DNA of 64,000 nucleotides from Arenicellales bacterium (GTDB taxonomy: Bacteria > Pseudomonadota > Gammaproteobacteria > Arenicellales > JAJDZL01), in NCBI GenBank assembly GCA_965220725.1, contig OZ244840.1:2304548-2368547 (forward strand), in the 5' to 3' direction. The notes under the pieces were generated by a model. It made no database searches. It saw only the letters and a list, made by a program, of their open reading frames with translations, and had not been told where the DNA came from. Below are positions 40,090 through 47,641 of this stretch, piece after piece (the stretch's first letter is position 1; each line of letters opens with the position of its first letter). Both the position numbers and the translations under genes were made by a program.

Positions 40090-41268
40090 ATGACGGTCAT
40101 GTCGAAGCAACGCAATAGTCAAAATATTCGATTTATCCATACCTCGGACTGGCAAATCGGGAAGGTTTTTCGCTTTGTCAATGCAGAAACCATGGGTGTG
40201 TTGCAGAAAGCGCGTCTCGATGTGATTGACCGTCTAGGTGAAATTGCCACAGAAAACGAAATCAGGCACATTCTGGTTGCTGGCGATGTCTATGACATTG
40301 ACGAGCCATCTACGCAACTTTTGAATCAACCGCTGGAGCGAATTCGTGAATTTCAGAATGTTGAATGGCATCTGCTACCAGGCAACCATGACCCACATCG
40401 TAGCAATGGGTTGTGGGACAGGATTCTGAAAGGGGGAAAACCTGACAATATACGCGTTTACCTTGAGCAGAAACCTGAGCTTTTCGAGCAGGAGTCATTC
40501 GCAGTTCTCCCGGCGCCGCTTTACTACAAACGAACTACCAATGACCCTACGCAGTATATGGATACTGTTGACGTGTCGAGTGAACTTACGCGAATTGGAC
40601 TGGCGCATGGGTCGGTTGAGGATTTCGGTGCAACGGATCAAAGCACGACAAATTACATCAATCCAAATCGTCCGAAAAAAGCGGGTTTAAGTTATCTTGC
40701 TCTGGGCGACTGGCATGGGCAGAAGGAAGTCAACGAAAAATGCTGGTACAGCGGTACGCCGGAGACCGACGCATTTGATGTCAAAAACGGTGGCAAGGCG
40801 CTGATTGTGGAGATAACCAGTCAGCGGGCGGATCCTGATGTCAGACCGATTGAGACTGGCTGCTATGAGTGGGTAAGTTTGAGCGAGCGAATCAACAGTC
40901 GGGACGATATTGATCACCTCGAAAATCGGATCAGAAATCTAGGTGGAGGCTTGAACCGGCACCTTGTGGATCTGGAAGTCAAAGGATTACTCTCACTTGA
41001 AGATTTTTCGTACTTTAGAAAGAAGATCGTCGAAGGTGTATCCGCTGCACTATGTTTCATGCGGATTAATCGCGACAGACTTAGACCGAAGCCTACGGAC
41101 GCGGATATTCGCCGAGTCAACAAGGGTGAGGTTGTCAGGGTGACGTTCGAAAAGCTCATTGACCTTGCCAATAACGGTAGCGAGCAGGAACGCAAAGTCG
41201 CTTCTGAAGCGATTATTCGCCTGTATTTTGAAGCCATGGACATGATTGAAGAACAGGAAGTCCAATGA
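40090..41268 (+). CDS. Mre11/SbcD-like calcineurin-fold metallophosphoesterase (non-canonical motif I).
   Basis: IRFIHTSDWQIGK (motif I has Q where SbcD/Mre11 have the DxH histidine), VAGDVYD, LPGNHD, GLAHGS and LALGDWHG. The stop overlaps the next gene's start (ATGA at 41265). Confidence 0.8.
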   Translation: MTVMSKQRNSQNIRFIHTSDWQIGKVFRFVNAETMGVLQKARLDVIDRLGEIATENEIRHILVAGDVYDIDEPSTQLLNQPLERIREFQNVEWHLLPGNHDPHRSNGLWDRILKGGKPDNIRVYLEQKPELFEQESFAVLPAPLYYKRTTNDPTQYMDTVDVSSELTRIGLAHGSVEDFGATDQSTTNYINPNRPKKAGLSYLALGDWHGQKEVNEKCWYSGTPETDAFDVKNGGKALIVEITSQRADPDVRPIETGCYEWVSLSERINSRDDIDHLENRIRNLGGGLNRHLVDLEVKGLLSLEDFSYFRKKIVEGVSAALCFMRINRDRLRPKPTDADIRRVNKGEVVRVTFEKLIDLANNGSEQERKVASEAIIRLYFEAMDMIEEQEVQ

Positions 41269-43877
41269 AAATTCGATCACTCACGGTCTACCAGTTCAAG
41301 AAGTTTGACGAACCCTACAAGTTGGATGGACTTGCTGGCGGTATCGACGTCGTGGTCGGTCCAAATGAGATGGGCAAGTCTACTTTGTTGAGTGCGCTTC
41401 GGGCGGCATTTTTTGAAAAATATATGTCCAAGTCAAAGCACATCGTCAGCCTGCAAAACAATCGTTACCCGTCGGCGCCTGCTGTATGCGTCGTGTTTGA
41501 ACTATCCGATGGTGCCTATGAATTGAAAAAACGGTTTCTCAAGAAGCCATATGCAAGTTTGCGACTACCTGGCGGCCATGTTCTGGAAGGAGATGCGGCT
41601 GAAGACAGGATTCAACAACTTTTGAATCTTGGCGGGTCGAGCAAGAGTCGAAGTTCTTTGGATTCGCGGGGAGTATGGAACTTGTTTTGGGTGCAGCAGG
41701 GAGAGTCGTTTGAGCGGATAGACCCAAACAACGAAGCAGGATCATCCCTCTATGGTGCGCTGGTGTCGGAAATTGCAAGGATACTCGGTGGTCGGCAGGC
41801 TCAGACTTTAATCGGGATTTTCGAGAACCAACGTAGCGAATTCGTGACACCAAAAACCGGGAAGCCAACGGGGACACTCAAGCAATTGATTGAAAGATCA
41901 GCGCAATTGAAGGGTCAGCTGCTGGAACTGCGAGATCGACAGGAAGAGTTGTCGAACTCTATGGCTGAACTCGAGGCTGCACAAGTCACTCTGGATGCGC
42001 TGAGGGTTGAAACCGATCTTTCCAGAGTTCGGGACGAATTGAGCGATGCTCGGGAGGAAAGGTCCAAGGTAGAAGTTGAAGCCACCAAAGTCCGTTCAGA
42101 AGTCGAAAGGTTGGGAGAACGAATCGAAAAAATAAAAAAACTGAAACAGCAAATTGAGGAAGTGACGAATCTAGTTGAGTCTCATGAAAAAAGCATTGTT
42201 ATTGTCGGTGAGGAATTGTCTAAAGAAGAACAGCGATTCAATGAATTGGATATACAACTCAAACAGACCGAGAGTGAGCGTTCGGATCTAGAGACTCATT
42301 TGAAGTCGCTTGAGCGGCATCAGGCCGCTTTTGAATTGTGCGCAGAAATCGAGAAATTTTCCAGTATCCAGCAAAATATCCGTGAATTGGAGGAAAAGGC
42401 ATCAGAGATTCTCGTAAACGAACATCTGATGAGGGAAGTTGAGGAAGCCAATCGCAGATTTAGCATCGTAGATGCAAAAATCAAGACCAATGCAGCTCGC
42501 GTAATCTTTGAGTTGGAGGAGGGTGGCGCCGAGGGCGTGACCATCAATGGCATTGAACTCGAGGAAAGCCACCACGAAGTGAAGGTGGCTGAGAAACTGT
42601 CAATTGGGATTCCACAGCGTGGAACAATTGTGGTGCAGCCGCCGGAGGATCTTTTACCAGAGCTTGAAGCGGCAAAGTTGGAAGTGGAACGTCTGCTTGA
42701 GTCGTGCAAAGCAAAATCCGTCGAGCACGTAAACACTCTATACAAGGAGCGGTCGGAACTGATTCAATCCGCGACATTGGCTCAAAGGGAATTGGAAGTT
42801 ATTTTGAAAAACTCAGGACCAAATTGGAACGATGCACGACCGGTTAAAGAACAGATTTCTGAAAACCAAAAGAAACTCGTCGATGAAATGTCGAAACTCG
42901 GCATTCAGGATTCAGCTGAACTGAGAGACCAGCAATCGACAATCGCTGAGATTAGAAAAGAATCAGAAGAGAAAAGTTACAAAATCGCGAACCTGCAAAA
43001 GGCAGTCGAACAATTGAGATTAAAAATCAACGAATTCAATTTGAATCTGGCAAAGGAAGAAGTCGGGTTGAAAAACAGCAAAAAGCGATTGGACGAGCTG
43101 AAGAAGGAGCTTGCCGTGGTTCTCGGTGGGAAAACCACAGATGAACTGCAAGCCCAGTTTCGGGAAAAATCAGCGCACATCGAGACGCTTGAGTCAGAAC
43201 TTGGTGAGCTGCAACGCAAGATCGGGGAATTCGAACTACGCATCAGACAGTTTGAAGATAAAAAATCTGAACTCGAAAAGGAGATTGTCCGCCTCACCAC
43301 GATCATTGAAGATAGACAGGGTGTGGGATTGGAGGAGCAGATTCAGTCGGTGGAACGCAAATTGGGTTTTGCAAAGTCCGACATTGAAAAGTGCTGGGCT
43401 GAAGTAGCGGAGTTGGATTTGCTGCTGCAGACAATGCAAGATTCCGAGGGCGAGGTGAAGAACCGATTTCTGTCCGACATATTGCTCCGCGTCTATCCCT
43501 ATTTGCGTCAGATTTTTCCGTCTGCCACATTGATCACGCAAGAGGACGGAAACGTCACAGACATCGAGAGAGATCCGGGTGGAAGGGAGACTTTCCAAAC
43601 ACTCAGCATTGGTACCCAGGAGCAGATATCGGTACTGTCCCGAATTGCATTTGCCGAGTTTCTTGTGGAGAAAAATCATCCAGCAGTCATCGTGCTGGAT
43701 GATGCGTTGGTTTTTTCAGACGACGCCCGTATCGAGACGATGTTTCGTATCCTCAGTCAGGCGTCGGAAAACATTCAGATTCTCGTATTTACCTGTCGGG
43801 AGAAGCTGTTTGAAGATCTTGGAGGCAACATAGTCACAATAGTACCAGCTGATCACAGAACATTCGATTTCGCTTGA
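41265..43877 (+). CDS. Rad50/SbcC/YhaN-like SMC-type ATPase with a long coiled coil.
   Basis: Walker A GPNEMGKSTLLSAL, about 550 aa of E/K/L/Q-rich coiled coil, the signature-like LSIGTQEQ, and Walker B VIVLDDALVFSDD. I saw no CxxC zinc hook in the coil. Confidence 0.8.
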   Translation: MKIRSLTVYQFKKFDEPYKLDGLAGGIDVVVGPNEMGKSTLLSALRAAFFEKYMSKSKHIVSLQNNRYPSAPAVCVVFELSDGAYELKKRFLKKPYASLRLPGGHVLEGDAAEDRIQQLLNLGGSSKSRSSLDSRGVWNLFWVQQGESFERIDPNNEAGSSLYGALVSEIARILGGRQAQTLIGIFENQRSEFVTPKTGKPTGTLKQLIERSAQLKGQLLELRDRQEELSNSMAELEAAQVTLDALRVETDLSRVRDELSDAREERSKVEVEATKVRSEVERLGERIEKIKKLKQQIEEVTNLVESHEKSIVIVGEELSKEEQRFNELDIQLKQTESERSDLETHLKSLERHQAAFELCAEIEKFSSIQQNIRELEEKASEILVNEHLMREVEEANRRFSIVDAKIKTNAARVIFELEEGGAEGVTINGIELEESHHEVKVAEKLSIGIPQRGTIVVQPPEDLLPELEAAKLEVERLLESCKAKSVEHVNTLYKERSELIQSATLAQRELEVILKNSGPNWNDARPVKEQISENQKKLVDEMSKLGIQDSAELRDQQSTIAEIRKESEEKSYKIANLQKAVEQLRLKINEFNLNLAKEEVGLKNSKKRLDELKKELAVVLGGKTTDELQAQFREKSAHIETLESELGELQRKIGEFELRIRQFEDKKSELEKEIVRLTTIIEDRQGVGLEEQIQSVERKLGFAKSDIEKCWAEVAELDLLLQTMQDSEGEVKNRFLSDILLRVYPYLRQIFPSATLITQEDGNVTDIERDPGGRETFQTLSIGTQEQISVLSRIAFAEFLVEKNHPAVIVLDDALVFSDDARIETMFRILSQASENIQILVFTCREKLFEDLGGNIVTIVPADHRTFDFA

Positions 43878-45558: not shown

Positions 45559-45789
45559 TTGATCTATTTTGATTTCACTCTTGAGGTTGCGGACACTTCC
45601 ATTTCCAGAGTCCGACAAGTGATTGAACTAACCGCCACAGGTGGTGATACGTGACAACCGGAAAAAGTTTCTGAATTTTTTCTGATTTGGACTTGAATCT
45701 CATAATTCCATCCCCATATACCCTTTAAGGTTGGCCGCATTTACTGAATCAACTCGCGTCAAACACAACAATCAGAAGGAGGATTTTCC

Positions 45790-46728
45790 ATGGACAACAC
45801 TTTTGAGCGCAAAAATCTGGAAGGCTATGAACACGATGCGTTATTCCATAGATGCATCGCGAACTCCGACCGCTTTGTGAGCATTGCGAAGCTGGCACTT
45901 GGCGAGGATGTCGCCAGGGAGTTTGACTGGAATACTGCGCGGCGAGAGGGGGAGAGGCAGGTCGGCGCCAAACTGCGCGAATTGCGTCCTGATTTTATGT
46001 TTTCGGTTTTGATGACCGATACCGAGGATGACCGATACCGGGTTCCCATGCAAGTTGAGCACAAAAGTTATAAGGACAGTGGTTTGATGCATCAGTTATT
46101 TCGGTACCAGATAGTCCACAATGACACCACCAAAACGCCACTCATCTCGATCGTGGTCTATCATGGCAAGGAGCCAAGCTGGCGCACGATACCGACGCAT
46201 CAACAATGGCCCTCCTGGGCGAATGACGAATACAGGAGGCGACTGATTAATTTAACGGGCCGGAAGTTGCTGAATTTCGATCCCTGCGTGCTGGACCTGC
46301 GTGAACTGGTGCGAAGCGGCAGAAGGCTTGATGGGAACATTGATGCCGTGGTGTACCTGCTTGCAGAGATCTGGGATCTTGATGAGGCAAAGTTGAAGAT
46401 ATTTTTCGAGAAGGCGACGCGGCTGAGCGGGCCTGACCGTGTTCAGGTTATAATAGACGCAAAAAATTATGTGTTAGTCAACTATCCCAATATTACGGTG
46501 GACACTTTAGAGAGAATCGAAAATGAAGCGGTTGAGGATCCAGACCTCAATACTGTGTTGACGTTTCGGAACGTCATGGCCAAGGAGTGGGAGGAAGCCC
46601 GCGCGAAAGGTCATGAGGAAATTGTGCTGCACATGGCTGGGCAGGGAATGGAGTCCGATGAAATCTGCAAAATGACCGGATTGAATCGTGAGTTCGTTGA
46701 GCAAGCCAAGCTCAACGGAAAAGGCTGA
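45790..46728 (+). CDS. Rpn-family (YhgA-like, PD-(D/E)xK, 'transposase_31') recombination-promoting nuclease.
   Basis: HDALFHRCI, RPDFMFSV, MQVEHKSYKD, QLFRYQ and VVYHGKEP parallel E. coli Rpn motifs (HDAVFK, D..YSV, IEHQS, RL.RY, ILFYHG). A strong SD (AGGAGG) precedes the ATG. Confidence 0.85.
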   Translation: MDNTFERKNLEGYEHDALFHRCIANSDRFVSIAKLALGEDVAREFDWNTARREGERQVGAKLRELRPDFMFSVLMTDTEDDRYRVPMQVEHKSYKDSGLMHQLFRYQIVHNDTTKTPLISIVVYHGKEPSWRTIPTHQQWPSWANDEYRRRLINLTGRKLLNFDPCVLDLRELVRSGRRLDGNIDAVVYLLAEIWDLDEAKLKIFFEKATRLSGPDRVQVIIDAKNYVLVNYPNITVDTLERIENEAVEDPDLNTVLTFRNVMAKEWEEARAKGHEEIVLHMAGQGMESDEICKMTGLNREFVEQAKLNGKG

Positions 46729-46906
46729 TCCGCAGTACGTATCATATTTTGTTGTCAGGGAACATCTGCCCCCAATATTTCAGCGAACGGAGTTGCTGTA
46801 GTGCGGGTGTTACGTTGCTTGCGTTAGCAATTACTTTGCGTGTGCGTGGTTTTCAAAACCCGATAAATGCAGGCAGGTGGATGATCTTCTCGTTCGGAGA
46901 GTGACG

Positions 46907-47185
46907 ATGGACAATTCAACCAGAATCGAAAATGAAGGGAGTAGGAAACCAGACCTAGATTCTGTGCTGACGTTCCGGAACGTTTTGCGCACCAGGAGGG
47001 CGGAAGCTTACGAGAAAGGTTACGCAGAAGGTTACGCAGAAGGTTACGAAGAAGGTCGCAAAGAGGGTCATAAGGAAATTGTGCTGCACATGGCTGGACT
47101 GGGAATGGAGTCCGATGAGATCAGCAGAATGACCGGATTGAATCGTGAATTTGTTGAGCAAGCGATGCTTAACGCCAATGGCTAG
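46907..47185 (+). CDS. Stand-alone Rpn C-terminal-domain (RpnS-like) small protein, copy 1.
   Basis: RIENEGSRKPDLDSVLTFRNVLR...HKEIVLHMAGLGMESDEISRMTGLNREFVEQAMLN aligns with the last ~75 aa of the Rpn gene. GGAGA lies 6 nt before the ATG at 46907. Confidence 0.7.
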   Translation: MDNSTRIENEGSRKPDLDSVLTFRNVLRTRRAEAYEKGYAEGYAEGYEEGRKEGHKEIVLHMAGLGMESDEISRMTGLNREFVEQAMLNANG

Positions 47186-47362
47186 CCACAGTACGTAGCG
47201 CATTTTGTTGTCGGGTAACTTCTGACTGCGATTTTCCGGTGAACAAAATTGGCGTGACAGCGGTGTTACGTTGATTGCGAGAGTAATGGCATTGCGTGTG
47301 AGTGGCTTTCAAAACCCGATAAATGCAGGCAGGTGGACGATCTGTGAGTTCGGAGAATGGCG

Positions 47363-47641
47363 ATGAACAATTCAATCAGAATCGAAAATGAAGAGGTTGA
47401 GTATCCAGACCTCGATTCCGTGCTGACGTTCCGGAACGTTTTGCGCACAAGGCGGGCGGAAGCTTACGAGAAAAGTCGCAAAGAGGGTTACGAAGAAGGT
47501 CGCAAAGAACTTCTCGAGGAAATTGTGCTGCACATGACTGGGCAGGGAATGGAGTCCGATCAGATCAGCAGATTGACTGGATTGAAGCGTGAATTAGTTG
47601 TGCAAGCAATGCGCAACAAAAAAGCTAAGCGTGTTAAGTAG
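47363..47641 (+). CDS. Stand-alone Rpn C-terminal-domain (RpnS-like) small protein, copy 2.
   Basis: RIENEEVEYPDLDSVLTFRNVLR...EEIVLHMTGQGMESDQISRLTGLKRELVVQAMRN. GGAGA lies 6 nt before the ATG at 47363. Confidence 0.7.
   Translation: MNNSIRIENEEVEYPDLDSVLTFRNVLRTRRAEAYEKSRKEGYEEGRKELLEEIVLHMTGQGMESDQISRLTGLKRELVVQAMRNKKAKRVK

Follow-up and report, generated by a model that had tools for sequence, protein, structure and literature searches.

A full-length rpn gene followed by a tandem array of stand-alone RpnS-type modules in an Arenicellales bacterium

The window analysed in this study, a stretch of 64,000 nt from the metagenome-assembled genome of an Arenicellales bacterium (assembly GCA_965220725.1, contig OZ244840.1, positions 2,304,548 to 2,368,547 of the forward strand), carries a full-length gene of the Rpn/YhgA family, which we call rpnL (45790-46728, + strand), followed on the same strand by two small genes, RpnS-like gene 1 (46907-47185) and RpnS-like gene 2 (47363-47641), each of which encodes a protein of 92 aa. 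The three open reading frames (ORFs) lie exactly where an initial annotation, made by reading the sequence, had placed them. In Escherichia coli, Zhong et al. 2023 found that the toxic full-length protein RpnL is neutralised by RpnS, a small protein made from an internal start (PMC10400941), and the initial annotation had described this work accurately. The first helix of RpnS contains hypervariable four-residue (12-nt) repeats, and RpnCS no longer neutralises when one repeat is added to it, unless RpnCL gains the same repeat (PMC10400941). RpnS is also encoded "as a separate gene" in the form of ypaA (rpnESs) after rpnE and rpnCSs after rpnC (PMC10400941). The initial annotation had proposed that in the window the RpnS-like module has been externalised and amplified in a layout not previously described; the module and the array are both borne out by our analysis, far beyond chance, but the layout as such is not undescribed, given the published ypaA and rpnCSs. 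The initial annotation also put forward extra dosage, decoys and altered specificity as possible roles of the copies.

The rpnL gene is preceded by the Shine-Dalgarno (SD) sequence AGGAGG (45777-45782, + strand), which can be read directly from the sequence 7 nt 5′ of the ATG, and it encodes a 312-aa Rpn/YhgA-like PD-(D/E)xK protein. When this protein was compared with profile libraries, it matched PF04754 (Transposase_31, YhgA-like) over residues 14-134 with an E of 3e-12 and 47 bits against a cutoff of 21, and its orthologue in a sister genome gave the same result, above the gathering score. The putative catalytic codons, placed by alignment and translation, are D68 (45991-45993), E90 (46057-46059) and K92 (46063-46065); these residues and H91 are invariant across an alignment of 23 homologues, and the PD-(D/E)xK signature is visible in the translation as RPDF...QVEHK. 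The profile and alignment results thus make RpnL a member of the Rpn/YhgA (Transposase_31) family, as the initial annotation had supposed. Against TIGR01784 the protein scored 14.2 bits, which does not reach the curated cutoff of 52.1, and the C-terminal end alone was aligned. When 1.84 billion representatives were scanned in full by HMMER with a profile of the RpnL subfamily, 510 proteins were returned at E <= 1e-3, mostly full-length Rpn proteins because the profile retained its N-terminal columns. Since the TIGR01784 cutoff was missed and just 510 relatives were found, these comparisons assign RpnL to a divergent Rpn subfamily. The nearest Rpn relatives outside the lineage, with 27-31% identity, are on marine metagenomic scaffolds of 1.3-2.5 kb from TARA Oceans, which hints at a marine origin of the subfamily. 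Those scaffolds stop ~20-130 bp 3′ of the rpn gene, and the breaks may stem from repeats.

Codons 237-312 of rpnL (46498-46728, + strand) form an internal RpnS-type module, delimited by alignments, that has the shortest repeat region of all the modules. Small proteins 1 and 2 align with these last 76 residues of RpnL at 68% and 59% identity, respectively, in agreement with the C-terminal match of ~75 aa noticed initially, and the alignment of the three modules has 40 invariant columns, among them RIENE, PDL, VLTFRNV, EIVLHM, GMESD and TGL. The C-terminal part of TIGR01784 matches both small proteins (E 4e-6 for the first and 1.3e-5 for the second), and a hidden Markov model (HMM) of 14 modules from this lineage matches E. 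coli YpaA with an E of 8.5e-5 in a small local six-frame database. Because of these two matches and of the four-residue repeats that both genes contain (12-nt repeats at 47003-47070 and 47475-47509), the small ORFs are, on the evidence of their sequences, stand-alone versions of the C-terminal RpnS-type module of RpnL. The AlphaFold2 (AF2) model of small protein 1, with a predicted local distance difference test (pLDDT) score of 64.8, has helices at residues 17-40, 44-64, 69-76 and 80-91, which amounts to a disordered N-terminus, a long helix (17-64) that is least confident where the repeats lie, and two short helices. This predicted layout, from a model of modest confidence, is consistent with the helical or HTH module of the intragenic RpnL/RpnS systems, which has the repeats in its first long helix.

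The modules and the spacers between them constitute a tandem array of ~2.5 units of 456 bp, each unit a module plus a spacer, that extends over 46495-47624 on the + strand as judged by Tandem Repeats Finder and a repeat search. Tandem Repeats Finder reported a period of 456 bp, the same as that of the tandem duplication put forward in the initial annotation, with 2.3 copies, 81% matches and a score of 1329 over 46607-47624; in the repeat search, weaker homology (71-73%) reached left to 46495, within rpnL. At its right end the array resembles an old truncation or junction, because the repeat homology stops near 47620, ~20 nt short of the stop codon of gene 2, and the sequence 3′ of this gene is unrelated to the spacers. 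Small gene 2 also has a distinct and basic tail, KKAKRVK (window 47618-47641), which in the sister genome reads KKVKRIK.

Spacer 1 (46729-46906, 178 nt, + strand) and spacer 2 (47186-47362, 177 nt, + strand) are 76% identical overall, and the conserved block seen upstream of each small gene in the initial annotation is present. They share a 31-nt block (TTTCAAAACCCGATAAATGCAGGCAGGTGGA; 46851-46881 and 47307-47337) that is 100% identical in the two spacers, compared with ~76-85% identity in the surrounding units, and 100 shuffles produced 0 chance matches of this kind. The block has 1-4 mismatches in the three spacers of the sister genome and is absent from the spacers of a paralogous locus described below; its identity in the window may reflect recent gene conversion. 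A reading of the spacer as an RNA element was rejected: it had no match in Rfam, its folding stability was no greater than that of shuffled sequence (z = -0.3), its covariation term was unfavourable, and scans for sigma-70 promoters and terminators in the spacers gave hits at chance level. One of the scan matches, TTGTCA-N16-AATATT in spacer 1 (46752-46779; TTGTCG-N16-GATTTT in spacer 2), lies within a stretch of spacer conserved between the two loci, and 8/8 aligned units retain the second-position A and the sixth-position T of its second hexamer. We regard it as a candidate promoter only. Because the scan found no terminator between rpnL and the small genes, co-transcription of the three genes is also possible.

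Each small gene in the window has GGAGA (46896-46900 and 47352-47356) 6 nt 5′ of its ATG, which confirms that each comes with an SD sequence of its own. All five stand-alone genes of the window and the sister locus, whose products begin with MDNS or MNNS, retain both the SD TTCGGAGA(G/A) and the ATG at the 6-nt spacing, whereas this SD is missing from the two stand-alone ORFs of the paralogous locus. Longer versions of the small ORFs, such as the 114- and 128-aa products of the gene caller, were rejected; upstream of the conserved ATG, the frame stays open for anything between 5 and 54 codons, depending on the copy, and no start is conserved there. The ATG of every stand-alone module aligns with RpnL codon 237, which is GTG in the window and ATG in the paralogues P0007 and P0008, and none of these intragenic codon-237 sites has an SD. 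From the alignment of the ATG with a codon that is itself ATG in two paralogues, the stand-alone genes probably begin at an ancestral internal start of the subfamily. Further internal sites in rpnL are M263 (46576), with a weak GGAA 4 nt before it and a predicted product of 50 aa whose repeats would start ~11 residues past the Met, as in E. coli RpnS, and GTG279 (46624), with GAGG 5 nt upstream. By analogy with the E. coli work, the small proteins would be translated separately.

The 12-nt tandem repeats of the small ORFs, the hallmark of RpnS, encode the tetrapeptides GYAE, GYEE and GRKE, which in small gene 1 occur as two copies of GYAE followed by GYEE and GRKE. The C-terminus of full-length rpnL is without these repeats, so the first helix of small proteins 1 and 2 is 16 and 12 aa longer, respectively, than that of the RpnL module. 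When the repeat region was measured from RNV to EIVLHM in the seven modules of the two genomes, it was 14 aa in RpnL and 30 and 26 aa in the small proteins of the window genome, and 30 aa in RpnL and 18, 26 and 34 aa in the small proteins of the sister genome. All the differences are multiples of 4 aa (12 nt), and in neither genome does any small protein equal the resident RpnL in repeat length. These steps show that the length of the first helix changes by slippage of the 12-nt repeats.

The locus of the sister genome is syntenic with that of the window, and its flanks are 96-97% identical at the nucleotide level. Its RpnL has 328 aa, with four extra tetrapeptide repeats, its array contains three small genes, and its orthologue of small gene 2 is 8 aa longer. 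At informative sites, unit 1 of the window tracks unit A of the sister genome up to ~46813 and unit B from ~46840 onwards. Because of this mosaic of sister units A and B with its breakpoint at ~46813-46840, the difference of one unit between the strains is, to judge by these sites, the product of an unequal crossover in the spacer. No close relatives came to light when GTDB genome contigs, JGI metagenomes and viral contigs were scanned by exact and profile matching, and a word-indexed protein search returned just the window and sister genomes.

The mosaic unit and the crossover within the array raise the question of whether the downstream modules act as a cassette reservoir, that is, as donors for recombination or gene conversion that would swap the 3′ end of rpnL and with it the helix length and the pairing or trigger specificity, in a manner that can be likened to variation systems with an expressed locus and silent cassettes. 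Exchange among units is also suggested by the spacers of orthologous units, which have diverged by 13%, more than the 5% of the unique tail; RpnL itself differs by four repeats between the strains; and Zhong et al. 2023 speculate that RpnL may promote recombination events (PMC10400941). On the other hand, the extra repeats of the sister RpnL (EIRA, EGRE, EGLE and VGRE) are unlike the GYEE and GRKE of the small genes and were therefore not copied from the present cassettes, and the RpnL C-terminus is the most conserved of the modules between strains, with a ratio of non-synonymous to synonymous divergence (dN/dS) of 0.16. Silent cassettes, moreover, need neither an SD nor an ATG, yet all the copies keep both. 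We therefore consider a reservoir of this kind, and the likeness to silent-cassette systems along with it, quite improbable.

A paralogous Rpn locus lies outside the window in both genomes, that of the window's genome having been found by cluster look-up. In the sister genome (L003 4427-9088, contig_4) it comprises two tandem rpn genes (310 and 324 aa), which were duplicated along with a DUF2065 gene, then a stand-alone module of 88 aa, an ORF of 271 aa that consists of three fused RpnS-like modules with the inter-module spacers read through, and a truncated remnant module at the end of the array (L003 8954-9088). The repeated unit of this locus has the same left boundary as the unit in the window, and the spacers of both loci agree over ~75 nt at their 5′ end and over ~20 nt just upstream of the ATG, the window-type spacers containing an extra insert of ~80 nt. 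The 271-aa triple-module ORF is 95% identical between the genomes without gaps and is open in both. It matches helix-turn-helix (HTH) families such as Sigma70_r4_2, HTH_29 and HTH_23, in agreement with the HHpred remark of Zhong et al. (PMC10400941), and a precomputed match of the 271-aa paralogue to PF27070 is described as "faint".

One alternative is that the small ORFs are non-functional leftovers of a recombination-prone tandem duplication, drifting and coming and going by unequal crossover without any control over RpnL. Several observations would be expected of such a neutral by-product. The three codon positions contribute about equally to the variable sites among the five small ORFs (16/17/19), the dN/dS between paralogues is 0.6-0.9, and the orthologues have a dN of 0.05, ~7-fold the 0.007 of the N-terminal domain of RpnL; the flanking genes have dN/dS values of 0.02-0.34. 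In addition, copy number is polymorphic between close strains, a truncated remnant ends the paralogous array, and ypaA of E. coli K-12 (L005 4817-5002) is labelled a pseudogene in RefSeq. Against drift, all five small ORFs of the two genomes, the 88-aa ORF and the 271-aa ORF are intact; in simulations at the observed divergence, a small ORF stays intact by chance with a frequency of 0.3-0.5 per copy, with the reservation that the copies are non-independent. The SD and ATG are kept in 5/5 cases, the SD having been gained in comparison with the intragenic site, the coding parts have no frame-breaking indels whereas the spacers carry indels of 1 nt and 17 nt, and the dN/dS of the orthologues (0.44 and 0.53) is below 1. 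The latter signal is borderline, as the orthologue pairs combined have 11 synonymous and 20 non-synonymous changes, compared with the ~24 non-synonymous changes expected under neutrality. Finally, the E. coli YpaA protein was detected by Zhong et al. (PMC10400941), in spite of the RefSeq label on its gene; other E. coli genomes label ypaA "hypothetical protein" or "Rpn/YhgA-type helix-turn-helix domain-containing protein". As evidence that selection acts on the small ORFs, these data are weak to moderate. Rapid and possibly diversifying evolution of a hypervariable domain would account for the pattern of divergence, and relaxed constraint fits it as well. Taken with the rest, a purely neutral origin appears to us an unlikely explanation of the array.

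The explanation that we favour, with moderate confidence, is that the locus is of the Rpn toxin-antitoxin type, antiphage according to Zhong et al. 2023, with stand-alone RpnSs paralogues that arose by tandem duplication. The 3′ module of rpnL and the spacer downstream would have been duplicated in tandem to give two stand-alone RpnSs genes in the window and three in the sister genome, and the array would then have been reshaped by unequal crossover between units and by slippage of the dodecamers. The small proteins would be made and, as the E. coli work suggests, would fold into a long dimerisation helix followed by a helix-turn-helix. Probably the stand-alone copies modulate RpnL or serve as spare or alternative partners of other lengths. 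Because all of them are mismatched in length to the resident RpnL, a role as modulator or alternative partner is more likely for them than one as the exact cognate antitoxin, which may still be supplied by a weak start within rpnL.

A number of results weigh against the assignment of the locus to this type. The repeat mismatch of the window's small proteins with RpnL, 12-16 aa, would abolish neutralisation under the rule established in E. coli. What the small proteins match in TIGR01784 is just the last stretch of the profile (positions 218-272 of 273), below the curated cutoff, and the 14-module profile gave an E of 0.15, which is not significant, against the sequence of the RpnA-S crystal structure 7TH0. 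Neither the small proteins nor the RpnL C-terminus matched PF14261 (DUF4351) at E <= 10, and PF27070 (HTH_Rpn_C) was not returned for any of them by a Pfam copy whose inclusion of that family is unconfirmed. A Foldseek search with the model of small protein 1 returned nothing significant, the best hits (E 0.6) being generic HTH proteins. The chance-level promoter and terminator scans belong here too, as do the even distribution of changes over codon positions, the paralogue dN/dS and the fast divergence of the orthologues.

How the locus relates to the published systems is best seen by comparison with rpnE-ypaA and rpnC-rpnCSs of E. coli. All these cases have, downstream of a full-length rpn gene and on its strand, a small gene that reproduces the C-terminal module of that rpn gene; this small gene stems from a tandem duplication and clusters with its own upstream gene. 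Zhong et al. concluded that the stand-alone rpnSs copies arose independently from the upstream genes and that they can be lost or fused (PMC10400941). In our own check of E. coli K-12, ypaA (61 aa) lies 12 nt 3′ of rpnE and has one tetrapeptide repeat more than the RpnE C-terminus, and across 5,421 E. coli genomes there are 1-4 ypaA-like places per genome, with a median of 2. As in rpnE-ypaA, then, the number of four-residue repeats varies, the stand-alone copy is mismatched to the resident Rpn, and the layout is polymorphic among strains, but the mismatch with RpnL is 3-4 units here rather than the one unit between YpaA and RpnE. Where the published arrangements have one copy, there are two here, three in the sister genome and four more modules at the paralogous locus. 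The spacers are 177-178 nt long, compared with 12 nt in K-12 rpnE-ypaA, and the small proteins (80-100 aa) have ~26 extra N-terminal residues, so that their repeats start from about residue 37 and not at residues 8-20 as in E. coli. A strong SD is found here on the stand-alone copies only, unlike in the E. coli pairs, and the small proteins differ from those of E. coli in having no Pfam DUF4351 match.

The intragenic RpnL/RpnS systems, such as E. coli RpnA (RpnA-S structure 7TH0) and the plasmid-borne RpnP2, have in common with the locus a PD-(D/E)xK N-terminal domain and a variable C-terminal helical or HTH module with tetrapeptide repeats in its first long helix. Unlike in those systems, no internal start led by an SD is evident in the rpnL of the window. 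The tandem rpn arrays of Zhong et al. 2023 resemble the paralogous locus, where two whole rpn genes are duplicated along with the DUF2065 gene, and both are tandem direct duplications without target-site duplications, whereas the array in the window duplicates about the last quarter of the gene plus the spacer and not whole genes. In the main text of Zhong et al., neutralisation by the stand-alone RpnSs is not reported and their role is left open (PMC10400941), and among the later papers that our literature search covered we found none on arrays of RpnS genes. Relative to that main text, only the array of two or more copies is additional, with its modules of unlike repeat number, its GGAGA confined to the stand-alone copies and the related modules of the paralogous locus. 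The multi-copy, strain-polymorphic and length-diversified array, together with the fused triple-module ORF, is a modest variant of the published single-copy arrangement rather than a new system.

The GC content of the locus is ~0.49, compared with 0.52-0.57 in the flanks. Upstream of the locus in the window (40090-43877, + strand), a gene for a Metallophos phosphoesterase of 392 aa overlaps one for an 870-aa SMC/AAA_27-type ATPase, forming a pair that resembles SbcCD or YhaO-YhaN. The ATPase has weak PADLOC matches to LmuB and JetC over coiled-coil regions, with a best E of 8e-12, and PADLOC returned nothing for the Rpn genes. A defence-island context was therefore rejected, given the blank PADLOC result for the Rpn genes, the weak coiled-coil matches of the ATPase and the mostly metabolic neighbours. 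In an unrelated lineage, a contig of ENA ERZ25069764 (L015 3996-5408) encodes a stand-alone RpnS-like protein of 135 aa, P0067, with ~9 tetrapeptide repeats. Its gene is directly 3′ of one for a WYL/WCX-domain protein, and the 14-kb contig, which ends ~500 bp further, shows no rpn gene.

A more speculative proposal, to which we give little credence, is that the array is a repertoire of RpnS helices whose lengths vary through 12-nt slippage and unequal crossover and whose mismatch is the point of the arrangement, the copies serving as decoys for, or sensors of, phage factors aimed at the RpnS-RpnL interface, or being swapped into rpnL so as to change its specificity. If this were true, the array would add a layer of cassette-like diversification to an antiphage toxin-antitoxin system, and the fused triple-module protein would be a multivalent version of it. 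For the toxin-antitoxin locus with stand-alone paralogues that we favour, as for its alternatives, the array offers a natural panel for the repeat-matching rule, with one RpnL and two or three partners whose helices are 4-16 residues longer or shorter, in two strain backgrounds in which RpnL itself differs by four repeats. Binding and neutralisation assays of these pairs would tell antitoxins, modulators, decoys and debris apart, and would reveal how strictly repeat numbers must match in bacteria other than E. coli.

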